Below are positions 1 through 15,907 of a stretch of 15,907 bases of DNA, piece after piece; position 1 is the first letter of the stretch, and each line of letters starts with the position of its first letter. A program made the translations under genes and the position numbers. Origin of the DNA: Gemmatimonadota bacterium (GTDB lineage: Bacteria; Latescibacterota; UBA2968; UBA8231); the NCBI GenBank assembly GCA_038153405.1, contig JAYOYH010000063.1, positions 1 through 15,907 of the forward strand, given 5' to 3'. Under the pieces are notes generated by a model. The model did no database searches and was not told where the DNA came from. It saw only the letters and a program-made list of their open reading frames with translations.

Positions 1-44
1 CCTGATCCGTAGTCAGGTGCTCTATCCAATTGAGCTATGGGTGC
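1..44 (-). tRNA. tRNA-Arg(ACG), 5' portion; the 3' part runs off the window
   Basis: The reverse complement reads GCACCCA TA GCTC AATTGGATA GAGC A CCTGA CT ACG GA TCAGG. This gives the acceptor 5' strand, a D-arm (GCTC/GAGC) and an anticodon stem (CCTGA/TCAGG) with anticodon ACG at 8-10. Confidence 0.95.
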
Positions 45-62
45 GCTCAAATTCAAGGACAA

Positions 63-91
63 AAAATAAGGGCGATCTGTGCCTTCGTCAA
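63..91 (-). promoter_or_regulatory. sigma70-type promoter for the tRNA
   Basis: Minus strand TTGACG (91-86), a 17-nt spacer, then TATTTT (68-63), ending 18 nt upstream of the mature tRNA 5' end. Confidence 0.7.
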
Positions 92-106
92 GAGCGCCGG
101 CGCCTG

Positions 107-1822
107 CTACTCGTCGAGCACGGCGCGCACCTTCTCGGCCAGCGCATCCAGCGAAAAGGGCTTCTGCAAAAAGTTCATCCCCGGCTCCAAGACATAGGTC
201 GTCAAAACGACATTGTCCGTATAGCCCGACATGTAGAGCACTTTGGACTGGGGCATAACCGGCTCTAATAGTTCGATCATTTCCGGTCCGCTCATCTTGG
301 GCATGACAACATCGGTGAGAATCAGATGGATATCGCCTGTATACTGCTCGCACACCCGCATGGCATCCATCGGATCTTCGCCTTCCAACACGGTATAGCC
401 GCACTGCTCCAACGAGTGCTTGCATAACTTGCGCACAGACTCGTCGTCCTCCACCAACAAAATCGTCTCATCGCCGCCGCTGTGTACCTGCGCGCGCGGT
501 AACTCTTTTACGCGAATTTCCGAATCAGCGTGTGGCAGGTAGAACTTAAAAACCGTGCCTTTACCCATTTCGCTATAGACCCAGATATACCCGCCGCTCT
601 GCTTAATGATGCCGTATACCGTCGACAGGCCCAACCCTGTCCCCTTGCCGCGCGCTTTGGTAGTGAAAAACGGGTCAAAAATGCGCTGTTGCGTGGCGAC
701 ATCCATGCCCGTACCCGTATCGGTGACGGCAACCATCGTATACGGTCCGTAGGCACCGGCTTTTACCACATCGTGCTGCATGGAATAGCTCTCGTCCATG
801 ACGACGTTTTGCGTTTCCACAACAAACTTGCCACCGTCCGGCATGGCGTCGCGTGCGTTGACGGCGAGATTCATAATGACCTGTTCGATTTGACCCGGAT
901 CGGCCTTTACTAGCCCCACCTGCGGATCGAGCACCGTCTCTAATTCGATGTCCTCGCCAATCAGCCGCCCGAGCATTTTTTCCAGCCGCCCGATAATCTC
1001 GTTGAGATTAATCACCTGCGCCTGCAGCACCTGGCGCCGGCTAAAGGCCAAAAGCTGGCGCGTCAGCGAAACGGCCCCGTCGCTTGCCTGTTCAATTTCC
1101 TTGAGGTTTTCTTGCACCACATGATCGGATGGCAGCAGACTCATGGCCAGCGAATTGTTGCCCGTAATGAGCATGAGCAGATTATTGAAGTCGTGCGCCA
1201 CGCCGCCGGCCAGCACGCCGATCGCCTCCATCTTCTGCGACTGCTGTAGCTGCTCTTCCAAACCGGCGCGCTCGTCTTCGGTTTTGCGCAGCTCTTCGCT
1301 CTGTTTGGCGAGCTCGCGCGTGCGCAACTGCACCTGTTCGGCTAGCTCGCCGTTGAGTTTTTCCAACTGATCGAGCATATAGTTGATGGACAGAGCCAGA
1401 CGGCCGATTTCGCCTTCGGGATTACCCACTGGCGTGCGCTCGCTCAAATCGCCGTGCGCAATGCGCTCGGTAGCATTGATCACCGTTTTCAGCGGGCGCG
1501 TCACGATACTGCCTATGAGATATATCGCCAGTAGACCAGCAATAAACGTGACCAAACTGACGACGACGAGGTCACTCCGGACGCGCGCCGCCCTTTCGCC
1601 CGCCATGGCGACGGCTTCCTCGATTGCAGCGGCGTTGACATCGGACGCGCTCTGTGCAGCCGACACAAGCACACGCCGCTCGCGTTCTTCATACCACATG
1701 GGATAGAAAACCGATACAGAAGCAGCGAGCAGGGCGAGGACTAAGCCACTCAGTAGCGTAAGGCGGATGCGAAGAGAGTACGCAGAAAGGCGTGAAGCTG
1801 TATTTGGTGCGCTATGACTCAT
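107..1822 (-). CDS. Hybrid sensor histidine kinase/response regulator (2 TM, HAMP, HisKA, HATPase_c, REC; CckA-like)
   Basis: Two hydrophobic segments; HAMP (TRPLKTV...EIGRLA); H-box AGGVAHDFNNLL; N-box NLAVNARDAM; G1 DTGTGM; F-box FDPFFTTK; G2 GTGLGL; receiver with LLVEDD, LTDVVMP and KPF. Confidence 0.93.
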   Translation of the reverse strand: MSHSAPNTASRLSAYSLRIRLTLLSGLVLALLAASVSVFYPMWYEERERRVLVSAAQSASDVNAAAIEEAVAMAGERAARVRSDLVVVSLVTFIAGLLAIYLIGSIVTRPLKTVINATERIAHGDLSERTPVGNPEGEIGRLALSINYMLDQLEKLNGELAEQVQLRTRELAKQSEELRKTEDERAGLEEQLQQSQKMEAIGVLAGGVAHDFNNLLMLITGNNSLAMSLLPSDHVVQENLKEIEQASDGAVSLTRQLLAFSRRQVLQAQVINLNEIIGRLEKMLGRLIGEDIELETVLDPQVGLVKADPGQIEQVIMNLAVNARDAMPDGGKFVVETQNVVMDESYSMQHDVVKAGAYGPYTMVAVTDTGTGMDVATQQRIFDPFFTTKARGKGTGLGLSTVYGIIKQSGGYIWVYSEMGKGTVFKFYLPHADSEIRVKELPRAQVHSGGDETILLVEDDESVRKLCKHSLEQCGYTVLEGEDPMDAMRVCEQYTGDIHLILTDVVMPKMSGPEMIELLEPVMPQSKVLYMSGYTDNVVLTTYVLEPGMNFLQKPFSLDALAEKVRAVLDE

Positions 1823-1881
1823 GGGGTACCTAAGCAGCTAGGTTAGCATCCGTGACGGACAATGCAGCCAGAACACCGGTT

Positions 1882-1890
1882 AATATAGCA
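1882..1890 (-). promoter_or_regulatory. Possible extended -10 promoter for the histidine kinase
   Basis: Minus strand TGCTATATT (TGn plus TATATT) in an AT-rich patch of the 1823-1927 intergenic region. No well-spaced -35 element. Confidence 0.35.
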
Positions 1891-1927
1891 TAATTATCAA
1901 ACGGACGCGCCAAACAGCGGGGGCGCA

Positions 1928-3082
1928 TCAGGCCAGCGCCTCGAGATACTTATAGCCGCTGCCCGTGTTAAACAGTACGATGCGCTCGTCGCCAGAGACC
2001 CTACCTCGCTCCTTCAGAGCGAGCAGTGCCGCCAGCGTTGCGCCCCCCTCGGGCGCGGGGAAAATACCCGTATACGCGGCGATGCGGTGGGACTGTTCGA
2101 CGAGGGCACTATCGCTGACGGCAATGGCCGTACCGCCGCTGGCGCGCAGCGCGCGCAGCATGAGAAAATCGCCGACGGCTGCTGGAACGCGCAAACCCGA
2201 AGCGACCGTGTGGGCTCCCGTCCACATTTCGGCTCCCTCGTCACCGCGTTCAAAGGCGCGCACGATGGGCGCACAGCCCTCGGCCTGAACCGACACCATG
2301 CGCGGCCGCTGGCTACCGATCAGTCCCATACATTCCATTTCTTCAAAGGCCTTCCACATGCCAATAAGGCCCGTGCCACCACCCGTTGGATAGACGATGA
2401 CGTCGGGGAGCTGCCAATCGAACTGCTCGGCCAATTCGTAGCCCATGGTCTTCTTGCCCTCTACGCGGTAGGGCTCTTTGAGCGTAGATACGTCAAACCA
2501 TCCTTCGCTCTCTTTGCGCGCGGCGACGATCTTGCCGCAGTCGCTTATAAGGCCGTCGACCATTTCCACTGTCGCCCCGCTCGAACGGCATTCAATAGCA
2601 AAGGCCGATGGCGTATCGCGTGGCATAAATACAAACGCTGGCAAGCCACAGGCCGCCGCATAGGCGGCGAGCGCACCGCCGGCGTTACCCGCCGTGGGGA
2701 TGGCCAACGCGCGCGCGCCGCGCGCACGCGCTGCGCTCACAGCAGCGGAAAGACCGCGCGCTTTAAACGAGCCGGTGGGATTGAGCGATTCGTCTTTGAT
2801 ATAGAGATTGGTAAAGCCCGCCCACGCACCGAGGCGCTCGACTCTGTGTAGCGGCGTAAACCCTTCGCCGAGCGAAACGATTTCATCGGTAGAGCGTATG
2901 GGCATTACTTCTCGATAGCGCCACATCGTAGGCGCGCGCTCCTTTAGGGCATCCGGTCGCAGCGTGGCAGCAGCCTTTTCCAGGTCGTAGCGCGCCAGCA
3001 GAGGTGCGCCGAGCGCAGAGAGATTATGCAACTCAGCAGCATCATAGGTGCTGCCATCCCGGGCGCATTCGAGATGGGTCAT
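1928..3082 (-). CDS. thrC: Threonine synthase (PLP-dependent, fold type II)
   Basis: Motifs SLGEGFTPL, KDESLNPTGSFKARG (PLP lysine), TAGNAG, EGKKT, YPTGGGTG, PEGGA and FNTGSGYKY. The true start is ATG 3082 (ATGA overlap with the nadD stop) or 3088; the ORF extension to 3460 overlaps nadD and looks spurious. Confidence 0.88.
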   Translation of the reverse strand: MTHLECARDGSTYDAAELHNLSALGAPLLARYDLEKAAATLRPDALKERAPTMWRYREVMPIRSTDEIVSLGEGFTPLHRVERLGAWAGFTNLYIKDESLNPTGSFKARGLSAAVSAARARGARALAIPTAGNAGGALAAYAAACGLPAFVFMPRDTPSAFAIECRSSGATVEMVDGLISDCGKIVAARKESEGWFDVSTLKEPYRVEGKKTMGYELAEQFDWQLPDVIVYPTGGGTGLIGMWKAFEEMECMGLIGSQRPRMVSVQAEGCAPIVRAFERGDEGAEMWTGAHTVASGLRVPAAVGDFLMLRALRASGGTAIAVSDSALVEQSHRIAAYTGIFPAPEGGATLAALLALKERGRVSGDERIVLFNTGSGYKYLEALA

Positions 3083-3663
3083 GTGCATGGGGTATAGAGT
3101 CCTTTTTCGCGAATGTAGCGCTCGACCGCATCGGGCACCATGGCCCGTACAGGCAAACCGCTGTGCAGGCGTTGGCGGATCTTCGTCGAGGACAGCTCGA
3201 TAAGTGGCGTATCGATAAAGTGCATGTGCCGCACCAATTCGGGGTCGACCTCGGCCTGTTCTGCGAGGCGCTGACCAGCTACCACAGTACACAGAGACAA
3301 GATGCCCTGCGGATCGTGCCACGTCGACATATGCGCGACATTGTCGCTGCCAATCACTAGGAAAAATGCGCTGTCGGGATATCGTTGATGCAGCTGGCGC
3401 AGCGTATCGACCGTATACGATTTGCCCGGACGATCCAACTCGATGCGCGAGGCAGAGCACGATGTGAGATCGGCAATTGCCAGTTCGACCATGGCGAAGC
3501 GGTCGTTGGAGTCGGCGTGCGTGCTGTCTTTATGAGGAGGGTCTGCGGCGGGAATAAAAACGATTTCATCGAGGGCTAGCGCCTCGCAGGCAAACAGCGC
3601 CAGCAGCACGTGCCCGTTGTGAACGGGATCAAACGTGCCGCCGATCAATCCGATGCGCTGCAC
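3079..3663 (-). CDS. nadD: Nicotinate-nucleotide adenylyltransferase
   Basis: Motifs GGTFDPVHNGH (HxGH), PPHK, SYTVDTL, IGSD, W(H)D and SSTKIR. Confidence 0.95.
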   Translation of the reverse strand: MQRIGLIGGTFDPVHNGHVLLALFACEALALDEIVFIPAADPPHKDSTHADSNDRFAMVELAIADLTSCSASRIELDRPGKSYTVDTLRQLHQRYPDSAFFLVIGSDNVAHMSTWHDPQGILSLCTVVAGQRLAEQAEVDPELVRHMHFIDTPLIELSSTKIRQRLHSGLPVRAMVPDAVERYIREKGLYTPCT

Positions 3664-3667
3664 CGCA

Positions 3668-4414
3668 CTACCCCGCCGAGGCGTTTAGCTGCGAGAGCGC
3701 TTCCTGCACTTCTTTCTTTAACTTGGCGTCTTCGCTGTCGCGCAGCACTTCTTCCCAGTGCTGCACGGCGCCATCAATGTTGTCTTCTGCACGGTCCAGT
3801 TCGCCTAGGCGAAACAGCGTGTAATAATACCAGGTCGTATCGGGATAGTCGCGCAACACGTCCTGAAAGGAAATGCGCGCCGCTTCCAAATAGCCCTGCC
3901 TCTGGTAGAGATAGGCACTGCGATAAATCTTCTCGGCCAGATTGTTGCGGCAGGTGACAATGCGCTCGCGCGCCGTCTCGACTAGCGACGAAGACGGATT
4001 GTCCTCGATGAAGTTGCGGAAGGCCATTAGCGCATCAAACGTTTCTTTCTGATCTAGGGCTGGCCGGCGCATTTGCTTAAAGTAGGACTCGCCTATTTTA
4101 AACTGCGCCTCTTCGGCCCACTGGCTAGCTGGATAGATATCGATGAGGCGCTGGTACTCGAAAGAGGCGTTTACGTAATCTTCGCTGCAAAAAAAGGATT
4201 CGGCCAGCAGATACTGCGACTCCGTGACGCGCTGCGAACCGGGGAAGTTGCTGACCAAACGCTGAAAGTGTTCGGACGCCTCCACGCAGCGCTTTTTCGC
4301 AAAGGCCTTTTGACCCTCGTCATAGTAGTAATCAGCGCCTTGCAACTTTTCCGGCGTGCTCGCACAGGCCGTTAAATAGCCAGCGACAGCGATAAGGGCA
4401 AAATATATAAGCAT
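3668..4414 (-). CDS. bamD: Outer membrane protein assembly factor BamD (TPR lipoprotein)
   Basis: Lipobox LTAC, five TPR-like units (FPGS, YPAS, NPSS and YPDT turns), the BamD-typical 'LDQKETFDA...F' segment, and a position next to nadD. Confidence 0.88.
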   Translation of the reverse strand: MLIYFALIAVAGYLTACASTPEKLQGADYYYDEGQKAFAKKRCVEASEHFQRLVSNFPGSQRVTESQYLLAESFFCSEDYVNASFEYQRLIDIYPASQWAEEAQFKIGESYFKQMRRPALDQKETFDALMAFRNFIEDNPSSSLVETARERIVTCRNNLAEKIYRSAYLYQRQGYLEAARISFQDVLRDYPDTTWYYYTLFRLGELDRAEDNIDGAVQHWEEVLRDSEDAKLKKEVQEALSQLNASAG

Positions 4415-4420
4415 AGGTAG

Positions 4421-5059
4421 TTAGCGATTGGAAAAGAATAGGTAGATTAGTCCGCCGAGCACAGTCGAGACGACCATGGGTTCGACGAACTTACTCCAGC
4501 TTTGTTCCTCTACTTCGGTCTGGGCAAATTTATAGGTTGAGTGCTGGAGTATTTCGAGTTGGTTTTTAGGTATGCGATCGGCGCGCAAGCGCGTGACTTC
4601 GTCCTGCCAGTAGACGATGTGGTCGCTTTCGCGGTTGAGGCGCAGAGCCAACGATGCCCGACTCTGGCGATCGGCGTGCGCGCCTCTTAGACCCGACTGT
4701 GCGGTAATGCCCATATCCAGTATACGAAAGGAAAAACGCATGCTCTCGGACCCGGCATTCGTCGAATCGGCCACTATGGAAAATCCGCGGTCGAGCAGGC
4801 ACTGCGCCAGCACGTGCTCGACCAGCCAGTTGGCATCATGGCGCCCCTGAGCGGCGATAAAGAGGGGAGCATCCGCTGCTTCGGCGGGCACCTCGAGCCC
4901 GGCCAGCGACTCATCGATGGCGTCTTCTACGGCGGCGACCAGGGCATCCATATTGCTCGGATAGGGAGCGATCGCCGCGGCGGAAAACGGGCCTATCAGC
5001 AACAGGGCAATAATCCGCCTCATCCCGCAGCGCAGCGACCGGGAAAATACATGCCCCAT
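4421..5059 (-). CDS. Hypothetical exported protein with a C-terminal membrane anchor
   Basis: The start is ATG 5059 (TAATG overlap with the upstream stop) or ATG 5023 (MRRIIALLLIGPFSAAA, signal-peptide-like). It ends in a hydrophobic helix, VEPMVVSTVLGGLIYLFFSNR. The ORF extension to 5326 overlaps the cpoB-like gene. Confidence 0.8.
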   Translation of the reverse strand: MGHVFSRSLRCGMRRIIALLLIGPFSAAAIAPYPSNMDALVAAVEDAIDESLAGLEVPAEAADAPLFIAAQGRHDANWLVEHVLAQCLLDRGFSIVADSTNAGSESMRFSFRILDMGITAQSGLRGAHADRQSRASLALRLNRESDHIVYWQDEVTRLRADRIPKNQLEILQHSTYKFAQTEVEEQSWSKFVEPMVVSTVLGGLIYLFFSNR

Positions 5060-5757
5060 TACAGGCCGCCGAGATATTTTAGCTCTTTGCGAGCAGTAGC
5101 AACGTATTCGCTTTCGGAGAACTCGTCCAGCAGCTTGCGAAAGGCGGCAATCGCCTGATCGCGCTCGCCAAGTGCTAAGTAGCAACGCCCTACTTTTAGC
5201 TGGGCATCGTCGGCTTTTTCCGTCTTGGAAAAGGCAAAGACCTTGGTGAACTCGGCTAATGCCTGGCGAAATCGTCCTAGCCCGTAGTAGCACTCGCCCT
5301 TCCAATACTGCGCGTTGTCGGCCCACTCACCGTAGGGAGCCGCCGCCAGAACGCGGTCAAACTGCACTACGGCCTGCTCGTACTCCTTTTGGTTGTAGAT
5401 GGCCAGCGCATTCTGATAGAGCGAAAGCGCGTCGTCGGCCCTGTTGCGAATGGCGTCGGGCGGACGCAGCGGACGCGTGTGCAGCGAATCCAAGCGCGCG
5501 CGCAGACTCTGGGTCTCTTCGCGCAGGGCACCCAGTTGCTGGCGCATTTCGGCAGCGCTTTCTTCTGCCTGGCGCAGGCGATCGGCCATGGCGCGCTCGC
5601 GGTCGTACGACGACTCGACGGCTCGCTTGAGCGCCTCGACGTCTTCGCGCTGTTCGTTCTGCCAAGTATCCAAACGCTGGTCTACCTGACCCGGCGTTGC
5701 GCAAGCGGCCCAGCCCAGCAGGAGAGCACAAAGAGGTATTTTTGCGTGCATAGACAT
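5059..5757 (-). CDS. cpoB: Tol-Pal system protein YbgF/CpoB-like lipoprotein (coiled coil plus 3 TPR)
   Basis: Signal peptide with lipobox-like WAAC, an N-terminal coiled coil, and the CpoB-type motifs ADNAQYWKGECYY, KADDAQLKVG and FSESEY. Confidence 0.8.
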   Translation of the reverse strand: MSMHAKIPLCALLLGWAACATPGQVDQRLDTWQNEQREDVEALKRAVESSYDRERAMADRLRQAEESAAEMRQQLGALREETQSLRARLDSLHTRPLRPPDAIRNRADDALSLYQNALAIYNQKEYEQAVVQFDRVLAAAPYGEWADNAQYWKGECYYGLGRFRQALAEFTKVFAFSKTEKADDAQLKVGRCYLALGERDQAIAAFRKLLDEFSESEYVATARKELKYLGGL

Positions 5758-5799
5758 GCTAAAAATATAAGGCCTCTTGCAAGCGCAGACCAGATATCG

Positions 5800-5816
5800 G
5801 CGCCGCAGCGCGGCGC
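5800..5816. other. GC-rich hairpin just after the cyclase stop codon
   Basis: GCGCCGC-AGC-GCGGCGC inverted repeat. There is no U-tract on the minus strand, so it is not a canonical terminator for the cyclase. Confidence 0.35.
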
Positions 5817-5817
5817 T

Positions 5818-8598
5818 TTATTTGCTCTCTGCGCGAAATACCAAGTCCTCGGGGGGATTGAGCGCAAACTCCTCGCAGCGATCGGCGTAGAGGGCAGACG
5901 GTCCGTCGTCCGGCACAATTTTTAACGCATCTTCAAAAAACGCGCGCGCCTCGTTGAATTCGTATTTCCAGTAGGCTTCCAGACCGCTCTTGTAGAGCGC
6001 CAATACCTGCATCATTTCCTCGTTCAATTCGCCCTTGCGCTCCAGCACTTCGTAGGCGACGACGGGCTCTTCCTTACCGACGACCTGAATCAAGTCGAGT
6101 TGGCGCGCTTCGATCAAATCCTTTACCTGCTCATAGATCTGATCGTTTACCATGATATTGGTGCCATAAATTTTCTGTCCGCTTTCAAAGCGTGCGGCGA
6201 GGTTCACAGTATCGCCCATCATGGTGTAGTCGGTGCGGCTGCGCGATCCCATATTGCCGACGATCATTGGACCAGCCGTGATGCCAATGCGCACCTGTGC
6301 GAAGGTGCGCCCCTGACCCTGCCAGCGGTCGCGCAGTTCTTCGAGACGCGGCGGAATGGCGCCCGGCTCGTTCCAGCGCTTGCGCAACTCGACAAGCATT
6401 TTCTGCTGGTCGATGCAGGCCATCACCGCCCGCGTCGCATGATCGTCGTAATAGAGCGGCGCACCGAAGAATGCAACGATGGCATCGCCTTCGAATTTGT
6501 CGATGGTTCCGCCGTAGCCCTCGATTATATCGCACATCTCGGTGAGATAGCCGTTGATAAAATCGACGAGTTCGGCCGGCGTCAAACACTCAGAGATAGT
6601 CGAAAAGCTAGCAATATCGGAGAAGAACGCCGTCATCACGCGCTCTTCGCCGCCTAGCTGATTGACCATGTCCGGGTTTTGCATGATCTGATCGACGACG
6701 GCAGGCGACAGATAGTGACCAAAGGCACCTTGGACGAATTCCTTCTCCTTCTCCTTTATGATGTAACCGTAAATCGTCAGCGCCAGATAGCCCACTACGA
6801 TAGTTAGCATCGGGCCTATAAACTCCAGCCAGAACCCATGCGTGAAGGAGTATAGGACGAGGACGGAGTAGACCGCTCCCAGCGCGCCAATGAGCAAGGC
6901 GCCCTGCAGCACCTTCAGCCGCGGCACGGCCAGCGACATGACCAAGCCCAGCAGTAGAATAAGCGCTACGCGTGTCCATACCGGCGTGCGGCTTATAAAG
7001 GCGTCGGTCAATATGGTATTGAGCACGTTGGAATAGATGCCGACCATGGGATAATTGCCCTGGAACGGGATCACGCTAAGGTCGGTGCTACCCGTTGACG
7101 TCTGCCCGTAGAACAGGATCTTGCCCTGGAGTTCATCCGGCGTGATAAGGCGCCCCTGTGCGCTGCGATAGGGATAGAAGTAGAGCGGACGCGCCTTCTC
7201 TTGGACTTTGCCGTCGACCAAGTGCCGCTGGGCAAAGTAGAGACTCTGCAAGAGATCTTCGCCGTCTTCTTGGGGCATTGCAGCCTGTAGTCCGGCCAGA
7301 TCAATATCGGGATTTTCCTCCAATAGCGCTGCGACGCGGTTGTTGCGGCGTATCTGCTCGTACATCAGGAGCTGCGCTTCTTGGGGCTCTTTGACGCCCT
7401 TTGAAGCCCAAAATGCACCCGCTTCTTGGTCTGGCTGCTTGCGCACGGCCGCTTCAATACCGCCTGCCTGCATCCAGGTCACCAACGCACCGCGCACCGC
7501 GCTCTGATCGTCATAGCCCTGCGCGGCCATCAGCCCGGGCAGGGGGCGCGGATTGCGGCGCAAGGCCGGGTCGTCAACGACCAGTTCCTTTATTTTATCG
7601 AGTAGTTTTTCGCGATCTTCGCGCTGGGCGGCCCGGCGCAGCGCTATGTGCGGATAGCGCACAAAGGTCTCCTCCCAGCGGCCGGTCCAGTTGACATTCA
7701 TCGTGCCGTGCTCGTCGATGGGAATGTTTATATCGCGTACGCTTCCATCGGGAAAGCGCGCATTGGGCAGAAGCACGCGGTCGCCGGGCCACACCTTTAC
7801 ATCGGCTAGATTAACCTGCAGGTGATCACAGGCCACATTCAGAGCAATTGATGGGAATAGAATGTCCTTGTACTGGAAGACCACCGGATAGCGCCTGCGC
7901 GCACCGTCAAAGTCCTCCGTCGTCTGAGCGTAGGAATAACCGCGCGCGGCGTTGCGCAGAACGGAAATGGGCGGTTCGAAATTGGTGGCTCGGCTAATAC
8001 CGCTCTCTTCGACGGGAACCATCAAGCGCGGCGAATTGGCTCGTATGTTTTCGAGCACGCCCTGCTTTTCCGCGTCGAGCGGTGGGTAATTCAGCTCTCC
8101 CTCTGACTCTTCTTCCTGCACGTTGAGGTACTGAGCCAAATACACGTTGTTGGCCTTTTCAATGGCTCGGCCAAAACGCGCATCGTAGTCGGCTTCAGCG
8201 AGCAGCCGTTCTATGCCCTTTTCGTCAATAGATGACAGGCCCCGAATCTGCTTTTCCGTAAGCAGTTTGGTGATGGGTTCGGGATAGTAGATATCAAATC
8301 CAATGCGCTCGGCTCCATATTCACCCATGATGCGCACGACATCGATATACTCAACGCGCGTCCAGTTTTGCCAACGCCCTTCTATTTCCAACGTCTGGTC
8401 GTCGATCTCTATCGTGCCGAGATTCGGATTCATCTGCGGGAGGCCAAAGATGGAATTGCGGATATTGAAGCGCCAGTCATAGCTGACCAACTCCGCGCGC
8501 TCATAGGCTTTAGTCAGGGCAAAAAGCAGTACCAGCAGGCCGACTATGGGTCCCAGATAAAGCTGTAAGCGAGGATCGTCTTTACTTGATGCCGCCAT
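5818..8598 (-). CDS. CHASE2-domain class III adenylate cyclase with C-terminal TPR-like helices
   Basis: N-terminal TM; CHASE2 motifs (YDWRF, IEIDDQTL...GRW..W.R, IGFDIYY, DFDGARRRYP, GKILFYG, GIYSNVLNTIL); three TMs; cyclase motifs FSDIASFS (D661), DKFEGDA (K701, D705) and DYTMMGDTVNLAARFE (T792, N799, R803). RBS GGAGG at 8610-8606. Confidence 0.93.
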   Translation of the reverse strand: MAASSKDDPRLQLYLGPIVGLLVLLFALTKAYERAELVSYDWRFNIRNSIFGLPQMNPNLGTIEIDDQTLEIEGRWQNWTRVEYIDVVRIMGEYGAERIGFDIYYPEPITKLLTEKQIRGLSSIDEKGIERLLAEADYDARFGRAIEKANNVYLAQYLNVQEEESEGELNYPPLDAEKQGVLENIRANSPRLMVPVEESGISRATNFEPPISVLRNAARGYSYAQTTEDFDGARRRYPVVFQYKDILFPSIALNVACDHLQVNLADVKVWPGDRVLLPNARFPDGSVRDINIPIDEHGTMNVNWTGRWEETFVRYPHIALRRAAQREDREKLLDKIKELVVDDPALRRNPRPLPGLMAAQGYDDQSAVRGALVTWMQAGGIEAAVRKQPDQEAGAFWASKGVKEPQEAQLLMYEQIRRNNRVAALLEENPDIDLAGLQAAMPQEDGEDLLQSLYFAQRHLVDGKVQEKARPLYFYPYRSAQGRLITPDELQGKILFYGQTSTGSTDLSVIPFQGNYPMVGIYSNVLNTILTDAFISRTPVWTRVALILLLGLVMSLAVPRLKVLQGALLIGALGAVYSVLVLYSFTHGFWLEFIGPMLTIVVGYLALTIYGYIIKEKEKEFVQGAFGHYLSPAVVDQIMQNPDMVNQLGGEERVMTAFFSDIASFSTISECLTPAELVDFINGYLTEMCDIIEGYGGTIDKFEGDAIVAFFGAPLYYDDHATRAVMACIDQQKMLVELRKRWNEPGAIPPRLEELRDRWQGQGRTFAQVRIGITAGPMIVGNMGSRSRTDYTMMGDTVNLAARFESGQKIYGTNIMVNDQIYEQVKDLIEARQLDLIQVVGKEEPVVAYEVLERKGELNEEMMQVLALYKSGLEAYWKYEFNEARAFFEDALKIVPDDGPSALYADRCEEFALNPPEDLVFRAESK

Positions 8599-8642
8599 GT
8601 GGAGACCTCCCGTAAGGTGAGCGTTTACTGACTTAGTATAAT

Positions 8643-8674
8643 AAAAAATGGAAGGCCCGAGGACCTTCCATTTT
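8643..8674 (-). terminator. Rho-independent terminator, possibly bidirectional
   Basis: 11-bp inverted repeat AAAATGGAAGG (8645-8655) / CCTTCCATTTT (8664-8674) with an 8-nt loop. The minus-strand transcript ends in TTTTTT, about 20 nt after the stop at 8695. Confidence 0.85.
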
Positions 8675-8694
8675 CACTAAACCTTTTCAGTCAT

Positions 8695-9207
8695 CTATTC
8701 GACGCTCAGCTGGCTTACTTTATTTTGCGCTTTCGCCGCATAGGGCGACTGCGGAAATTCCTTGGCGACCTGCGAGTAATAATCGCGCGCCTGCGCCGGC
8801 TTGCCGAGCTTTTCGTAGCACTGGGCGACAAAAAACTTTTGCTTGGGCGCATTGGCCGATTTGGGATCCTTGCTCAATGCATCCTGCAGCGTGCTGATGG
8901 CCTTCAGCAACTTGTCCTGGGACGGTGCGCGCTTGCCGCCTTTGTAATAGAGTTTGGCGAGGATATTGTCCTCAGCCTCGGCGCCGCGCACACCGGCCAC
9001 CGTGACCGTTTCCTGCAGCTTGAACTCCTCTTCCTTGACCATGTCGTCGACCTGAGTCCAAACCGTATTGAGCCAATCCTCATCGCCTCCGGCCGCCGCT
9101 GCATCTGCGGCTTCGGCGGGTTGAGCTTCGGCCTCGCCCTGCTGTGCAGCGACGGGGGCTGCACCCAATAGGGCAATGAGCAAATAAAAAAACTTGGCAT
9201 TCTTCAT
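8695..9207 (-). CDS. Small secreted protein with a C-terminal TPR pair (170 aa)
   Basis: RBS AAGGAGGT ahead of ATG 9207, a Sec signal peptide MKNAKFFYLLIALLGAAPVAA, an acidic Ala-rich linker, a TVTVAGVRGAE motif, and TPR 'FFVAQCYEKLGKPAQARDYYSQVAKEFPQSPYA'. Confidence 0.88.
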   Translation of the reverse strand: MKNAKFFYLLIALLGAAPVAAQQGEAEAQPAEAADAAAAGGDEDWLNTVWTQVDDMVKEEEFKLQETVTVAGVRGAEAEDNILAKLYYKGGKRAPSQDKLLKAISTLQDALSKDPKSANAPKQKFFVAQCYEKLGKPAQARDYYSQVAKEFPQSPYAAKAQNKVSQLSVE

Positions 9208-9272
9208 CAGATTGCACCTCCTTTTCAAGGTGACGGGCTTTGTATCTAAATATCGGCGCACGTGCGCAAAAA

Positions 9273-9294
9273 ATACATGATCTACATCACACTA
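9273..9294 (-). promoter_or_regulatory. CRP/FNR-family-like operator
   Basis: Minus strand TAGTGTGATGTAGATCATGTAT matches the E. coli CRP consensus AAATGTGATCTAGATCACATTT at 16 of 22 positions, with one perfect TGTGA half-site. Confidence 0.55.
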
Positions 9295-9353
9295 GAACAC
9301 TTTTTCTAGCTATGCTATAGACGGCTATCTATACGGCAAAGTTCCTATCCTTC

Positions 9354-10380
9354 TTATTCCACTTCGTCTAGGAAGTTTAAAAAGCCCTGATAGCGCTCAT
9401 CGGATTCAACGACTTGGCGATAGATAACCTGCGCTTCGTTGCGGCGCCCCTGCAAATAGCGCACGATCGCCATATTGAGCAGCACGCCGGGGTGCGAGGG
9501 CATCAGGCGTTCTGCCTCTTCCAACAGCGCGTAAGCTTCTTCGTACTGGCCGCTATGGCAGAGGACTACGGCCTTGGCGTTGTAGGCATCGCCCAGCTGT
9601 GGGTCGGCGGCCAGCGCCTTGTCGAGGCGCTCTAGCGCGCGACTGTACTCTTCCTGCTGCATATAGGCCGAGGCGATGCGATAGAGTTCCTCAGCCGATT
9701 CGACCTCGGCGAGAAAGTCGAGCAAGCCGCCATAAGCATCGTCTTCGCTGATAATCTGCTGGTAGAGCGCGTCGGCGCGATCGCGATCGCCCTTCAAATA
9801 GTAGATTAGCGCAATGTTGAGGCGGAAACCCGTCTGGCCGGGATCGATTGAGGCCGCCTTCTCGTAGAGCGAGAGGGCTTCGTCGTACTGGCCCTTGTGC
9901 GTAAAGACCACGCCCTTGGCATTGTAGGCATCGGCAAACTGCTCGTCGGCATTGATGGCCTCTTCAAACTGGGCCATCGCTAGATCAAAGCGATTCTGGC
10001 GCAGATAGGCCGTGCCGATATCATAGGATTCCTGCGCATTGCCCACTTCGGCCAGAAAGTCGAAGAGTTCCATATAGGAACCGTCGCGTGCAACGACTTC
10101 CTGAAAAAGCCGGTCGTAGGTCTCGCGCTCACCCTTCAAGTAGTAAGTGAGGGCGATATTCATACGCACGCCGGTGTTGTCGTCAAACTGCAGCGCGCGG
10201 CGATAGTATTCGAGCGACTCGTCGTACTGACCCTTGTGAGTCAGGATAACGCCCAAGGCATTGAGCGCGTCAAAATTCTCGGGCTGCATGGCCAGCACGC
10301 GCTCGAACATCGAAAAGGCTTTTTCTAGGTGGTTGACGCGCAGATAGGCCGCGCCGGCATCGTAGAGCCCTTCGGGCGTG
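9354..10380 (-). repeat. Three tandem approx. 114-aa TPR super-repeats inside the CDS
   Basis: Each unit ends in (D/N)FL(A/D)EV. The terminal Val codons at 10044, 9702 and 9360 are exactly 342 nt apart, and the units share H(K/S)GQY(D/E)E and N(I/M)A..(Y)YL.G motifs. Confidence 0.85.
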
Positions 10381-12401
10381 TCGAGCGAGACCGACGAGCC
10401 CAGCGCAATCTGGTCGACGCGCTGGTCAAAGAAGGCGATGTCGCGATTGAGCAAGCTGTCCATCAGCGCCGACTCAGGCAGTGAGACGGTGCGCGGCGGC
10501 AGCGTAGCCGGCTTGTAGGTCTGGAACAGCTGCTGCACGTAAAGTTCCTCAATCAGCTTGCGCGGCTTGAGGCGCTTGTACTCGGCAGCGCCGTTGCGCC
10601 AGGCATCGGCGAACGTAAAGCCATACATCGTGGTCTCTACCGGAATCCACACGCGCCCCTGCCAGACCACATATTCAGCGGTCGACAGAAAGTGATCCTC
10701 GGCGCGGTCGGGCGAAATACCGCTATCGAACATCATGTAGATGTGGCCCTTACCCGGATCGTTGGCCTCGAGAAAAGCCGTATCGATACTCAGGTTTTCC
10801 AGCAGCGACGCAAAGAGCACCGTCAGGTCGTCACAGTCACCAATTTTCGTCTCGACCCCTTCGGGCTTTTCCAACAATTCGCTGGGATACTGAACTGTGT
10901 CGAAGATCGTCTTGTCGTCGGAGACGCTGGCAAAGGGCGTCTTCTGGTCGGCTTGGTAGCGAATGCGATAGGAACCCAGCGCATTGAAGAGGATTGTCGC
11001 CTTACCGATGTTGGAGCGGTTAAACTTCTCGGCCAGCAGGTCGTTATAGCGCTGCACGAGACCGCGCGCCAAGCTGGCCACCGACATGTCTTCCGGAGTG
11101 ACAAAGGCGGCGGCCATGCCCTTTACGTTCCAACTCAGCTTGCCCTTGCCGGCTACGTAGATGCGCTCGAGCTGCTTTTCGGCAAACTGATCTTGGCGGT
11201 TGCGCTGATAGTCGACGCGCACGATCGGCGTTACAAAGTTGTCGTAATAGGCCTCATCTCTATTAAACAAATCGGTATCAAACGTCACCTTAAAGGTGTA
11301 TTTCTCGTTGCTCTGCGGCGGCAGCGTAACCTGTTCACGGTGCGGCACGCTCATCACCTTGGGCAAGAACAGCGAGACGCTCGCCTCAATCGCTTCGGTC
11401 GCCGAATTGGAAATAACGACGTCGAAAAAGTCGTTTTCCTGATAGTGCGGATAGAGCGAGCGGAAAACCGGATTGGGGCGAATCAGCGCGTCCTTGATAT
11501 TGATTACGCGCGGATTGTAGGCCAGCGCAATCGACGTATAGTGCGTCGGCGCTAAAACGGGGTGGCGCTCGTAGGCGTAATCGATCTGCGCAAAACGGTA
11601 CTTGAGCCCGATGCCAAAGGTGGTCGTCGTAGCATCGGCGAGGGACTCGGGCGTGTCGCGCTCGGTTGCCACGCCGGCGCGCAGCGCCAGCAGACCGCGC
11701 AACCAGTATTCGGCTCCTAGGTGAAACGAATCGTCTATATCTGCGCCGATGGTCAGTCCCTCAACCGGTCGGTGAGCGATGCCAAAACGATAGCGCGTAT
11801 CGTACACCGGCTCCGACACGCCGCTCTCGTACTGCAGGTTGGTGCCGCCCAGATCCTGCGCGACCAACGCCAGGCGAATGCCGAAGGGCAGAGGAACGAG
11901 CAGGCCTACATCAAAACCCCAGCCCGAGGCGCTGCCCAAGCTATTGCCGTCTAGATCGACGCTAAACGAGCGATACTTGCCGCTCACGCCAATGGCCGTA
12001 TTGCCGATGAGGGGACGCAGGCGCTGAATGCCATTGCGATAGCCGTAGGCAAAGGCCAGTTTGTTTTGAGCGGTGTTGAGTTCGGAATCGTCAAAGCCAA
12101 GATAGAGCCAGTCGACGCCAATGGCGTGCTGGTCGCCAACCGGCAGCACGTAGTTCAAGTAGGAATGATTGAGCCCCAGACCGTAGCGGTCGGCATAGGT
12201 CAGACCAATTTCCTGTCGCTGCAGCGACGCCAGCGCGGCCGGATTCCAGTGGGCAGCGCTCGCATCGGAGGCTACTGCACTGAAGGCCCCGCCCATGCCA
12301 ATGGCCCGCACGCCCACCATCTCCTGACGCGGCGCGGCCAGTGTCGCCTGGGCGGCGATTAGCGCGATGCCCATGATTGCTATTGCACTCCGATAGTTCA
12401 C
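9354..12401 (-). CDS. PorV/PorQ-like outer membrane beta-barrel fused to a beta-rich linker domain, a transglutaminase-like domain and TPR repeats
   Basis: GTG start overlapping the upstream TGA; signal peptide; GVRAIGMGGAFSAVASDASAAHWNPAAL (PorV/FadL-family N-terminus); amphipathic strands to about aa 295; motifs GDCDDL, GHIY and WIPVETT; about nine TPRs at the C-terminus. Confidence 0.85.
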   Translation of the reverse strand: MNYRSAIAIMGIALIAAQATLAAPRQEMVGVRAIGMGGAFSAVASDASAAHWNPAALASLQRQEIGLTYADRYGLGLNHSYLNYVLPVGDQHAIGVDWLYLGFDDSELNTAQNKLAFAYGYRNGIQRLRPLIGNTAIGVSGKYRSFSVDLDGNSLGSASGWGFDVGLLVPLPFGIRLALVAQDLGGTNLQYESGVSEPVYDTRYRFGIAHRPVEGLTIGADIDDSFHLGAEYWLRGLLALRAGVATERDTPESLADATTTTFGIGLKYRFAQIDYAYERHPVLAPTHYTSIALAYNPRVINIKDALIRPNPVFRSLYPHYQENDFFDVVISNSATEAIEASVSLFLPKVMSVPHREQVTLPPQSNEKYTFKVTFDTDLFNRDEAYYDNFVTPIVRVDYQRNRQDQFAEKQLERIYVAGKGKLSWNVKGMAAAFVTPEDMSVASLARGLVQRYNDLLAEKFNRSNIGKATILFNALGSYRIRYQADQKTPFASVSDDKTIFDTVQYPSELLEKPEGVETKIGDCDDLTVLFASLLENLSIDTAFLEANDPGKGHIYMMFDSGISPDRAEDHFLSTAEYVVWQGRVWIPVETTMYGFTFADAWRNGAAEYKRLKPRKLIEELYVQQLFQTYKPATLPPRTVSLPESALMDSLLNRDIAFFDQRVDQIALGSSVSLDTPEGLYDAGAAYLRVNHLEKAFSMFERVLAMQPENFDALNALGVILTHKGQYDESLEYYRRALQFDDNTGVRMNIALTYYLKGERETYDRLFQEVVARDGSYMELFDFLAEVGNAQESYDIGTAYLRQNRFDLAMAQFEEAINADEQFADAYNAKGVVFTHKGQYDEALSLYEKAASIDPGQTGFRLNIALIYYLKGDRDRADALYQQIISEDDAYGGLLDFLAEVESAEELYRIASAYMQQEEYSRALERLDKALAADPQLGDAYNAKAVVLCHSGQYEEAYALLEEAERLMPSHPGVLLNMAIVRYLQGRRNEAQVIYRQVVESDERYQGFLNFLDEVE

Positions 12402-13858
12402 GGTTCCACCACCGTTTCCTGGTCGCCGCCCTGCAGTCCGGTGAGGTTTACGAAAGAAGTCGAGCCGGGAAAGCGCACTTCGAGGCGGTAGTCCGATCCA
12501 CCTAACACGCCAAACGAAAGGCCCGCGGCATCGGTCACATAGCGGAAGCCCACAAGGCGATCGCCGGCGTCAAATAGGCTCACGCTGGCCCCCAAGCCCG
12601 TTGCATTGGCCCCGCCCTGCTGACCGCCCTTGCCCAGCACCTGCACTTTGATAAAGCTGCTGCCCGGCGTCTCGTTCTGGAAGAGCAGATTGCCGCTGCC
12701 AAAGCCATCGGTCATGTAGAGATCGGGCGCGCCGTTACCGTCGTAATCGCCCCAGCGAGCGGCAAAGTGGACGCTGCCGCCCGTGGGCAAGTTGGCAAAC
12801 GCCGTAACGTTGTCGAAGGTGCCGTCGTTGTTGTTGGCATAGAGAATGTCGCGCTGAAACTGTCGATCGCTGCCGGTGGCCAAGTACAGGTCGAGAAAAC
12901 CATCGCCGTCGTAGTCAGCCCAGTCGGCCATCGAAGTAAACCAACCGGCATTATCTATGCGCACGCCGGCCACATCGGCCACATCGACAAAGGCGTTTCC
13001 CCCGTCGTTTTCATAGAGCGCATTGGCGCCGATATTGGCCACGTAGAGGTCGAGGTCGCCGTCGTTGTCGTAGTCACCCCAGGCGCCGTTGAGCCCGATT
13101 TCGTTGTTGGCCACACCGAGCGCAGCCGACACCTCTGAAAAGGAACCATCGGAATTTAAATCGTTGCGGTAAAACTGATTTTCCTGCTCGCGATTGACAG
13201 TGTACAGGTCGGGGTCGCCGTCGCCGTCGTAATCGGCCCACAGCACGGCGTTGGTGTCGCGGCCATCGGCCACGTCGAGGTCGGTCACCGGGGTAAACGT
13301 GCCGTCCCCGTTGTTATTGTATAGCTCATTGGCGAAGTAGAACTTACCCAAATAAAAGTCGACGTAGCCATCGCCGTTATAATCGCCCCATCCCACGGAT
13401 GTGACGTTGCCGCGGCGCTCCAAGTTGACCAGACCGCGACTGCGTCCCACCTCGATAAAAGTGCCGTCGCCCTGGTTTTGGTAAAGAAAGTCTTGGGCGT
13501 AAAAATCGGCAATGTAGAGATCGAGATCGCCGTCGTTGTCGTAGTCGGCAAAGGCCGCCGCTACGCTGTTGCCGTTATTGGCCACCCCGGCCGCGGCCGC
13601 CGCATCGACAAAAGACCCATCGCCCTGGTTTTGAAAGAGCGCGTTGATCGGGTTAGTAACCGCCGTGCCCCAGTTGGTCGTATAGAGGTCGAGATCGCCG
13701 TCCCCATCGTAGTCGCCCCAGGCCAAATTCGTACTAAACAGCCCGGCGTTGAGCGTGCCGCTAACGCCCGACAGGTTCTGGAAGGTCTGCGCAGCAACGG
13801 AGCCGCTCAAGAGGATTGAGGTCAGCGCGGCGCTGAGTATGTAGGTTCGCAAGCGCAT
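12398..13858 (-). CDS. Secreted FG-GAP/VCBS-repeat beta-propeller protein (CRTAC1/ASPIC-UnbV-like)
   Basis: Signal peptide ending VAA-Q; seven (W/F)(G/A)DY(D/N)xxGxxD(L/F)Y Ca-binding repeats, most followed by N.GDG(T/S)F-type turns; a short ASPIC/UnbV-like C-terminal domain (GLGASVSL...FGV...EVRFP). Confidence 0.9.
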   Translation of the reverse strand: MRLRTYILSAALTSILLSGSVAAQTFQNLSGVSGTLNAGLFSTNLAWGDYDGDGDLDLYTTNWGTAVTNPINALFQNQGDGSFVDAAAAAGVANNGNSVAAAFADYDNDGDLDLYIADFYAQDFLYQNQGDGTFIEVGRSRGLVNLERRGNVTSVGWGDYNGDGYVDFYLGKFYFANELYNNNGDGTFTPVTDLDVADGRDTNAVLWADYDGDGDPDLYTVNREQENQFYRNDLNSDGSFSEVSAALGVANNEIGLNGAWGDYDNDGDLDLYVANIGANALYENDGGNAFVDVADVAGVRIDNAGWFTSMADWADYDGDGFLDLYLATGSDRQFQRDILYANNNDGTFDNVTAFANLPTGGSVHFAARWGDYDGNGAPDLYMTDGFGSGNLLFQNETPGSSFIKVQVLGKGGQQGGANATGLGASVSLFDAGDRLVGFRYVTDAAGLSFGVLGGSDYRLEVRFPGSTSFVNLTGLQGGDQETVVEP

Positions 13859-13859
13859 A

Positions 13860-15907
13860 TTACCTCACCACAGCGACGGTTTTCTCGCGGCGCACGTCGC
13901 CGGCATTGACGACCACGATATAGAGACCGCTCGACACGGCCCGACGATCTTCGTCGAGCCCGTTCCACTTGAGCGATATGCGACCCGGCGCCATCGGCTC
14001 ATCGCGAACGACGACGCGCTCCAACTTGCCGGCGCTGTTGTACACGCGCACCGTCACGTCGGCCGGACCGCTCAAATCAAACGAGATATCGGTTTCGCCG
14101 CGCAGCGTGGCGCTGCCGGGTGCAAAGGCGCGCGGCTGGCAGTCGAGGTCGCGAATTGCCAAATCGCCAACAGCCGTCGATAAGTCTTCAAAAATAGCGA
14201 AAGTGCCCAACTGATCGACCGCCGTGCGCACCACGTTGGCCTGCGGATCAACGCTGCCGCCGATGCGCAACCACTGGCCGCTCTCGTCGGAGCGGAAGAT
14301 GGCCAGATGCGCAGGATCGCGATCGCCCAACTCTTCGGCGCTGTAGTGCATCGTCAGCGTGGCGCGTTTGGCCAGCGCGCCGACCTGTGCCCGCACGGAA
14401 TAGGCCGCCGTTACCTGCGTCGTCTCTTGGGCGAGCTTACCCACCCCAGCCGCGATCCGGCGAATGGCGATTTCACTGCTGCCAGCCGGCAGGGCGTTGG
14501 GCGGAAAGTAGAGCTCGAGCGTGCCGCTGGCATTCTTCACGTTTCCGCCCTGGCGCGCGTCGGCGAGGCTGGTCGCCGTGCGAAAGCTCCAGCTGTAGCC
14601 CTGCGTTGCCAGTTCGCCAAGAACCTGTGCATCCATCGAGATCGTATACTCAGTGAACGGCTTTAACCCACCGGCGATCGAGAAGCTGATAACCGCACCC
14701 GTTGAATCGGCGCCAAAACCCGTCAACGTCACCACCTCGGACGCGGCAGCTGAATCGGCCAACGAGCGCGCCGAAATCTGGAAGTCACGCGCCAACTGCC
14801 GGGCAACGGGCGCCGAAAAGGCGATCTGCACGTTGGACGAAGCCAGGCCGATGCCCTCTTCCCCGTTGGACGGCGTCGTTCCGACGACGCGCGGCACTTC
14901 GGTGGTAAAGGACCAGTTGAGATCTTCAAGGCCAATGGCCGATGCCAGCGGGCCGCTGGCCAACGCCTGCGCGCTGGCGCTATACGCCGCACCGGAGCGC
15001 AGTTCAACGCTGGGAAAGCTGACGGTAAAGGTCTGCGGATCGTAGGAAAACTCGTCGCTGGCCAGCGGAATCAGTGCCCCTCCGCGACGCAAGCGAAAAT
15101 TCTGGTTGTTGATCAGCGCCGGATCGAGCGGGCCAGAAAAAATCACCTGCAGGCGCTGAGGACCCGGCGGCACGGTAGCCTCTGCGGCGGGTCTGGTCGC
15201 CACGGGGCTAGGCACGCGCGTGGCAAAATCCCAATTGTAAGCGGCGCCGTCGCCCTGCAGCGGACCGCCAATATCCGAAGACAAGCGCACCGAGTAGGCA
15301 CTGCCCGGCTTAAGCCCTTCGCTGGCATTAAAGCTCAGCACGCTGTTGCCCGGGTCAAAGGCCGGAGTTGTAATGGGAATGGCAATACCACCCTGCAACA
15401 GCACGACGGCCCCCTCGCTGCGCAGCGCTTCTTCATCGATTGATCCGTCGAACTGAGCGCTAATCGCAGTACCCATATCAATCACAGTCGTATCGCTCGA
15501 TGTCGGCGCGGTCCCCTCTAACACCGGCACGGCCGAGCTAAAACTAATTGTCTGCACCTGACCCGAGCCCAGCGGACCGCTGACGCTGGGCGCAATCTGC
15601 AGCTCGTAGCGCGTACCTACGCGCCAGCCGCCGGCCGGTGCAATCCCATACAGGTTATCTCCGCGCGAAACCGGATCGCCGGCGCGCACTTCGACGGCCT
15701 GGCCAAACGCACTCAGCACAAAGCTCGACGTATTCAACTCGTCCGAATCGACCGGCGCGCTAAACTGCAGCGTCAGCTCTTCGAAATCCACGCCAACCGA
15801 CGCCGAGCCGCTGGCCGGCGCGCTTCCTTCCAACACCGGCACCACTGTGCTGAAACTAATTGTCTGCACCTGACCCGAGCCCAGCGGACCGCTGACGCTG
15901 GGCGCAA
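13860..15907 (-). CDS. Large surface protein, 5'-partial: tandem bacterial Ig-like (Big_5/SbsA-type) domains, a ZU5-like domain and a FlgD-Ig/T9SS-like C-terminal domain
   Basis: The frame is open to the window edge (APSVSGPLGSGQVQ...), so the 'start' at 15869 is an internal GTG. Four complete approx. 105-aa units (VP....T.P...F...D...L..G..Y...GPL...W.F.T); a ZU5-like segment (GG.V...L.FPPNAL...L.IF...W...V.....GTFAIF); and the C-terminus VRVYNSAGKL...KWNGLDEDRRAVSSGLYIVVV...KTVAVVR. Confidence 0.85.
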   Translation of the reverse strand, partial: APSVSGPLGSGQVQTISFSTVVPVLEGSAPASGSASVGVDFEELTLQFSAPVDSDELNTSSFVLSAFGQAVEVRAGDPVSRGDNLYGIAPAGGWRVGTRYELQIAPSVSGPLGSGQVQTISFSSAVPVLEGTAPTSSDTTVIDMGTAISAQFDGSIDEEALRSEGAVVLLQGGIAIPITTPAFDPGNSVLSFNASEGLKPGSAYSVRLSSDIGGPLQGDGAAYNWDFATRVPSPVATRPAAEATVPPGPQRLQVIFSGPLDPALINNQNFRLRRGGALIPLASDEFSYDPQTFTVSFPSVELRSGAAYSASAQALASGPLASAIGLEDLNWSFTTEVPRVVGTTPSNGEEGIGLASSNVQIAFSAPVARQLARDFQISARSLADSAAASEVVTLTGFGADSTGAVISFSIAGGLKPFTEYTISMDAQVLGELATQGYSWSFRTATSLADARQGGNVKNASGTLELYFPPNALPAGSSEIAIRRIAAGVGKLAQETTQVTAAYSVRAQVGALAKRATLTMHYSAEELGDRDPAHLAIFRSDESGQWLRIGGSVDPQANVVRTAVDQLGTFAIFEDLSTAVGDLAIRDLDCQPRAFAPGSATLRGETDISFDLSGPADVTVRVYNSAGKLERVVVRDEPMAPGRISLKWNGLDEDRRAVSSGLYIVVVNAGDVRREKTVAVVR
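15541..15907. repeat. 55-bp exact direct repeat (15541-15595 and 15853-15907), period 312 nt
   Basis: AAACTAATTGTCTGCACCTGACCCGAGCCCAGCGGACCGCTGACGCTGGGCGCAA occurs twice, with partial identity extending leftward (AACACCGGCAC). The second copy is cut by the window end. Confidence 0.95.

Follow-up and report, generated by a model that had tools for sequence, protein, structure and literature searches.

Several described systems share parts with a group of five genes that we analysed in a Latescibacterota genome (Gemmatimonadota bacterium, assembly GCA_038153405.1, contig JAYOYH010000063.1). In the NsrA-CyaK/CyaD1/CyaD2-Clr system of Sinorhizobium meliloti, an outer-membrane beta-barrel acts upstream of a CHASE2 cyclase of the inner membrane and a CRP-family regulator, parts that are also encoded here (PMC13001267, PMC7529298). 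In operons of a LysM-FecR protein and a CHASE2 histidine kinase (BiofilmReg, PA4035-type), a secreted protein with the motif [AG][VI]RG is encoded beside a CHASE2 receptor, and that report calls the stimulus of CHASE2 unknown (PMC5192318). The Lap system of Pseudomonas combines, as does our locus, a periplasmic transglutaminase-like enzyme with a nearby large surface protein and a cyclic-nucleotide module; its enzyme, LapG, is soluble, carries a Cys-His-Asp triad and is under inside-out control by cyclic di-GMP (c-di-GMP) via a LapD-type receptor (PMC3032545). The PorV/PorA-PorXY pathway of type IX secretion (the T9SS), finally, is a precedent for T9SS parts in signalling (PMC12152298). Two further observations concern the present locus: the conserved motif of a small secreted protein matches the strand at which FecR proteins cleave themselves, and this motif has been lost in one genus together with the predicted catalytic His of a barrel-borne enzyme, a CRP-like box and the CHASE2 cyclase.

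The window (bases 1-15907 of the 22,276-base contig, C63) ends at a 100-N scaffold gap (C63:15908-16007). Its five open reading frames (ORFs) of interest and their associated elements are the following:

13860 to >15907, minus strand: surface gene, coding for the C-terminal third of a secreted protein of about 2,100 amino acids (aa) with FG-GAP propellers, FN3 domains, Big_5 repeats (four in the window) and a FlgD-type C-terminal domain (CTD); the rest lies beyond the gap
12398-13858, minus strand: FG-GAP gene, accessory, coding for a 486-aa secreted propeller with seven FG-GAP_3 stretches
9354-12401, minus strand: barrel gene, coding for 1015 aa with a signal peptide, a plug and PorV-type barrel, an immunoglobulin-like (Ig) sandwich, a transglutaminase-like core and tetratricopeptide repeats (TPRs)
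10635-10835, minus strand: codons of the predicted triad, Cys523 (10833-10835), His553 (10743-10745) and Glu589 (10635-10637)
9276-9291, minus strand: CRP-like palindrome TGTGATGTAGATCATG, 68 nt before the ATG of the small gene
8695-9207, minus strand: small gene, coding for a secreted protein of 170 aa that has a TPR pair and carries the motif TVAGVRGA
8980-9003, minus strand: motif TVAGVRGA (aa 69-76), conserved in the small proteins
8643-8674, minus strand: intrinsic-terminator-like GC hairpin and T run, between the small gene and the cyclase gene
5818-8598, minus strand: cyclase gene, coding for a 926-aa inner-membrane protein with CHASE2 and Guanylate_cyc domains, class III

The surface and FG-GAP genes are separated by a 1-nt gap at 13859, the FG-GAP and barrel genes overlap in a GTGA (12398-12401), and a 146-nt spacer containing the palindrome precedes the small gene, which is probably transcribed separately from the genes upstream. 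An earlier, sequence-only reading had pointed out the co-orientation of the five genes, the gap, the overlap, the spacer, the box and the terminator, all of which are present in the sequence, and the domains that it had named (FG-GAP propeller, TPRs, CHASE2 cyclase) were borne out by a domain search. The spacer that holds the hairpin folds at -35.8 kcal/mol; a simple promoter and terminator scan performed at chance level and missed this hairpin.

We propose, with a probability of roughly 40%, that these genes encode a chain that runs from the outside in, from surface protein to barrel enzyme, small-protein motif and CHASE2, and closes with feedback by cyclic AMP (cAMP) and CRP. The PorV-type barrel would hold the CTD-bearing surface protein outside and the cysteine enzyme in the periplasm. 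On a surface cue, this enzyme would act on the small protein, cutting (or acylating) it at the AGVRG stretch. Once exposed, that stretch would serve as the switch of the CHASE2 cyclase, and the separately transcribed small gene would receive feedback, of one sign or the other, from cAMP-CRP via the conserved box.

Conservation of the locus was assessed by a scan of one genome per species, in which 572 stretches were confirmed; the counts use the best 80 loci, which come from Latescibacterota, KSB1 and Marinisomatota, with close relatives and a few second copies among them. The enzyme region was matched in 36 of 61 related genomes, and most close homologues bear the name Candidatus Latescibacterota, some being labelled Gemmatimonadota. 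A giant CTD gene lies next to the barrel gene in all 62 loci that have 2.5 kb or more of upstream DNA; linkage is seen for the small gene in 70/73 loci, for the cyclase in 64/74 and for a separate FG-GAP gene in 49/71. Eight of the ten loci without cyclase are of the Marinisomatota type and are cut within 5 kb upstream, which is the position of the cyclase in that group; the remaining two are L093, a second copy in a genome with the full module elsewhere, and L116, a locus with the His-to-Arg change described below. In Marinisomatota-type loci the cyclase is found upstream of the giant gene and there is no separate FG-GAP gene; this stand-alone gene is dispensable. Flanking genes differ among families and phyla and are conserved within one family (f1) only, so that inheritance alone is insufficient to explain the linkage. 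It is very probable that the four genes other than the FG-GAP gene form a functional module. Their co-occurrence, which the sequence-only reading had left to be looked for outside this genome, recurs across the three phyla. The trans-envelope module proposed there is upheld by synteny, by a rearranged gene order in which the linkage is preserved, and by coupled loss, but its FG-GAP gene is not a constant member.

It could be argued that the locus consists of two loosely linked units, surface protein plus barrel and small gene plus cyclase, which are inherited together with no direct signalling between them. The transcripts are indeed probably separate, and the rfaE2-like, cpoB-like, bamD and nadD flanks are also syntenic in f1; against this, the genes stay linked in other phyla, where the flanks differ and the cyclase has moved, and the coupled decay described below spans both units, making this explanation very unlikely. 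Besides, a secretin gene and a GspB-like gene adjoin the cyclase in the Marinisomatota-type loci L142, L145, L147, L150 and L152, and in L060, L138 and L148, from single-contig genomes, the module genes look split, probably by assembly frameshifts.

Among the small proteins from the 80 loci, 71 of 72 carry AG[VI]RG, which makes up five of the ten invariant columns of their alignment; the residues E-A-E-D downstream of the motif are likewise conserved. When the full library was searched with a profile of the small protein, TPR proteins dominated the result and no other motif-bearing family was reached; of 40 short matches, 31 contain G[VI]RG. That the motif is strictly invariant was considered and rejected, as VAARR is found in families f13 and f14. 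Orphan small paralogues with the sequence TAGGVRG (L166-L168, one of them with the motif twice) are encoded beside sugar aminotransferase genes, and two of the three genomes hold extra CHASE2 genes elsewhere.

The self-cleavage site of E. coli FecR is Gly181-Thr182 (PMC12036975). We compared 16 chosen plasmid cyclase/CHASE2 loci and 20 other Latescibacterota CHASE2 loci. An annotated FecR gene is found beside the CHASE2 gene, or at most two genes from it, in 10 of the 16 plasmid loci (four of the remaining ones are unannotated and two have no FecR gene), and a FecR-profile match bearing the motif is found within the same distance in 5 of the 20 others. All 15 of these CHASE2-adjacent FecRs contain [AG][VI]R[GS][TA] on the strand that was aligned by eye to Gly181-Thr182, and in one of them the sequence is AVAGVRG, identical to that of Marinisomatota small proteins; anti-sigma FecRs contain [AV]LGT in six of seven cases. 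The 1,190-aa FecR-domain gene directly before S. meliloti cyaK, which we take to be nsrA, encodes AAAIRGT. In a matrix made from the 15 FecR sites, the motif of the window scores 17.0 bits, above all 1,256,231 background windows, which were taken from 2,544 long ORFs of the genome analysed here; the test is post hoc, the idea of a resemblance having come first and the site expression having been written after it. No FecR domain (PF04773) was found in this 93% complete genome by a search with controls positive in five, and the module therefore falls outside the NsrA-CyaK and FecR-CHASE2 classes. A wider idea, which we put forward tentatively, is that CHASE2 is a receptor for a proteolytically exposed [AG][VI]RG end, generated by FecR self-cleavage in most bacteria and here by a barrel-tethered protease acting on a small protein under a T9SS-type surface sensor.

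Further evidence comes from coupled loss. In family f1, compared by hand, 35 of the 37 genomes with the small gene also have CHASE2. The two exceptions, G022 and G032 (genus g16, 92-93% complete), have no CHASE2 and no class III cyclase, and their enzymes are the only two of 43 in which His553 is replaced by Arg. Their small proteins contain SAGVPP where AGVRG is expected (best matrix score -2.2) and the CRP-like box is gone, while the surface protein, the barrel and the scaffold of the small protein are kept. A quick tree built from 32 chosen rows places genus g16 within f1, at the end of a long branch; in G129, a third g16 genome, a search for the enzyme, the small gene and CHASE2 found none of them. 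This shared decay ties catalysis, motif, box and cyclase together, and the enzyme, the motif and the cyclase probably act in one pathway.

Such a pathway might also work with no cleavage, the intact AGVRG strand binding to the active site of the enzyme or to CHASE2 and the true substrate or ligand being something else, such as a fragment of the surface protein; the small protein would then be an inhibitor, an adaptor or a cAMP-induced feedback regulator. Its own CRP-like box and terminator would suit an inducible regulator, the E-A-E-D residues after the motif are conserved too, two CHASE2-adjacent FecRs with AGIRG-A lack self-cleavage, and the CTD of PorA is described as an intact periplasmic ligand (PMC12152298). 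We nevertheless regard this explanation as somewhat unlikely: catalytic His, motif and cyclase are gone together where the small scaffold is retained, and the motif coincides with the known FecR cleavage strand.

The enzyme that the outside-in chain calls for is part of the 1015-aa barrel protein. Its barrel region (aa ~63-295) matches NF033709 (PorV/PorQ family; 96.5 bits, cut-off 90) and does not reach the PorV equivalog NF033710 (32.5 vs 250). The barrel is not stand-alone, 720 further residues being fused to it. In a model (pLDDT 82) it appears as an N-terminal helical plug followed by 14 strands, as counted by eye from DSSP with one loop hairpin left out; because this number is even, the C-terminal domains (enzyme and TPRs) are predicted to lie in the periplasm. 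In other proteins the Ig-enzyme cassette follows propellers with no transmembrane (TM) segment, or follows a TM segment. Residues 290-680, modelled at pLDDT 89, are predicted to form the Ig sandwich and the transglutaminase-like core, which is the layout of animal transglutaminases, and the top Foldseek matches are TG2 and TG3. Structural comparison of the core gave Z 9.8 with 3kd4 (rmsd 3.0, 135 aligned), Z 9.0 with TG3 and Z 8.2 with LapG (4fgo; rmsd 3.4 over 140 residues), and the whole set, which includes TG2, FXIII and 3isr, falls in the middling range of Z 8-10; PDB sequence searches with the enzyme region returned nothing. The putative triad residues, Cys-His-Glu with Glu in place of the Asp of transglutaminase-like triads, stand in conserved order, Cys523 and Glu589 being present in 43/43 aligned sequences and His553 in 41/43. 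A PorV-like barrel with a Cys-His-Glu domain and TPRs, as claimed from the sequence alone, agrees with both the NF033709 match and the conserved residues.

These features recall Lap-like or sortase-like display, in which the target that the enzyme would clip, anchor or cross-link is the surface protein or the cell wall, with control exerted from inside by the cyclase. LapG is among the fold matches, the Ig domain and core are arranged as in animal transglutaminases, and the pairing that occurs most widely is that of the barrel-enzyme and a neighbouring CTD propeller protein, which is seen also where small gene and cyclase are lacking. The enzyme, however, is predicted to be periplasmic and a PorV-held CTD would be outside, a separate PorU-like C25 protein adjoins porV in the genome, and the surface protein is retained where the His is lost; such a role is unlikely. 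The Lap-like adhesin processing of the sequence-only reading is likewise weakened: a LapG-like fold is there, but Lap works inside-out via c-di-GMP, the five genes, to which the search for LapD was confined, contain no LapD-type c-di-GMP receptor domain, and motif and cyclase decay with the His as the surface protein stays. In contrast with LapG, the enzyme here is barrel-fused, carries a predicted Cys-His-Glu triad, is likely linked to cAMP and would act outside-in; only the enzyme fold is held in common with Lap.

The same genome encodes a second Ig-enzyme cassette (G000:C78:8151-12533), which is part of a secreted protein of 1,460 aa that has neither a barrel nor a TM segment; proteins of similar length in its relatives carry Reg_prop/Y_Y_Y propellers. 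In L068 (6090-8873) and L069 (6093-8777), the cassette follows an nSTAND2 NTPase and a TM segment, which would join a cytoplasmic NTPase to a predicted periplasmic enzyme.

On the outer side of the chain, the surface gene continues past the gap to about C63:20437, which adds N-terminal FG-GAP repeats and FN3 domains, and same-genus relatives of the protein measure 2,084-2,118 aa. Its CTD exceeds the cut-off of FlgD_ig (32.2 vs 27) and stays below that of TIGR04183, the model for T9SS type A (16.6 vs 23), so the Ig-repeat protein with a FlgD/T9SS-like CTD described earlier stands for its FlgD part and not for TIGR04183, in a gene that is incomplete in the window. The genome has SprA above cut-off, ten PorV-family matches (seven above cut-off), a PorU-like C25 protein adjoining the best porV, 99 FlgD_ig matches (91 above cut-off) and one CRP-type regulator; the sequence-only reading had proposed to check for SprA, PorU and a CRP-family regulator, among other parts. 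GldM and GldN had no match in the genome, the control genomes being equally silent. PorV-family barrel, CTD-type cargo, SprA and PorU-like protein are thus found here as in the T9SS, and the surface protein may be secreted by SprA and PorV and bound by the barrel; known PorV is a stand-alone barrel, unlike the fused one of this locus.

At the inner side, the cyclase has four hydrophobic segments, one N-terminal and three later TM segments. Lys and Thr in the motifs of class III cyclases indicate ATP specificity; because both are present, the enzyme likely makes cAMP. A PDB sequence search with the CHASE2 region gave one chance match only. The strict CRP box pattern occurs in 20 of the 22 family f1 loci with cyclase and in neither of the two without it. 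A second strong CRP-like box (24.0 bits), at G000:C18:82190, is flanked on one side by the gene of a 1,471-aa protein whose C-terminus is FlgD-type and on the other by a divergent gene; it possibly marks a member of a cAMP regulon. Peptidases are recurrent beside CHASE2 genes: SH3-M48 peptidase fusions directly precede CHASE2 cyclases at L208:5926-7179 (Pfam) and L220:6239-7522 (by eye), and other CHASE2 genes are near caspase C14, CHAT or M28 peptidases (L203, L215, L217, L213). The idea of SH3/M48 clusters as carriers of AGVRG found no support, the best windows of the SH3-M48 fusions scoring at chance.

A number of observations weigh against the chain as we propose it. The coupled loss is a single evolutionary event, and the fold scores of the enzyme core are only middling. 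Fusions of the Ig-enzyme-TPR cassette to Reg_prop/Y_Y_Y and nSTAND2 proteins exist as well, and the stretches examined around them contain no cyclase; barrel-enzyme paralogues (L221 and L222 of G070, L067, L093) have CTD propeller proteins as neighbours but neither the small gene nor CHASE2. Conversely, the f9 genomes G069 and G070 have this type of cyclase and the small gene was not found in them, and the orphan small paralogues L166-L168 have no barrel or CHASE2 nearby. In f13 and f14 the module is intact with the motif VAARR[AH], which scores 6-8 bits in the matrix, and the strict CRP box is missing in all four loci of families f2 and f3. As to FecR, self-cleavage of its type needs Thr, Ser or Cys at the position, and two of the 15 sites (AGIRG-A, thus G-A), in which Ala replaces these, are therefore incapable of N-O self-cleavage; the seventh anti-sigma control, L198, is degenerate and contains ARG, and in secreted FecR domains the Arg may have a structural role. 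Finally, SH3-M48 and caspase-linked FecR-like neighbours of CHASE2 showed no motif above chance by the matrix.

The remainder of the window, downstream of the cyclase gene, contains a CpoB/YbgF-like TPR protein (5059-5757), an unassigned 211-aa ORF (4421-5056), BamD (3668-4414) and a NadD-like ORF (3079-3663, by eye), a block (3079-5757) that is syntenic in family f1 only. The window also contains a threonine-synthase-like ORF (1928-3460, by eye) and a HAMP hybrid histidine kinase with a receiver (107-1822, domain search).

Taken with the described systems, the module resembles NsrA-CyaK more than Lap: a predicted barrel-linked CHASE2 class III cyclase, a CRP regulator and a putative box for it are found here. 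It differs from NsrA-CyaK in that its barrel is of PorV type, with a cysteine enzyme and no FecR domain, in that a small protein of its own carries the motif, and in that the locus also encodes a CTD surface protein. In place of the self-cleavable FecR and the kinase of the LysM-FecR operons, it has a TPR small protein, a dedicated enzyme and a cyclase. Our literature search, which did not reach subscription papers and supplements, found no description of this gene composition, nor did it find a direct CHASE2 ligand described. CHASE2 is a widespread sensor, and the module gives a concrete candidate ligand for it, the AGVRG stretch, together with a candidate enzyme; tractable FecR-CHASE2 pairs, for instance those of S. 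meliloti CyaD1 and CyaK, lend themselves to a test of this prediction. If true, the wider idea of CHASE2 as a receptor for an exposed [AG][VI]RG end would amount to a bacterial tethered-ligand receptor logic common to unrelated systems, NsrA-CyaK included. The module suggests, too, a role in surface sensing for T9SS-type parts of phyla outside Bacteroidota, namely abundant uncultured ones from marine and subsurface habitats.

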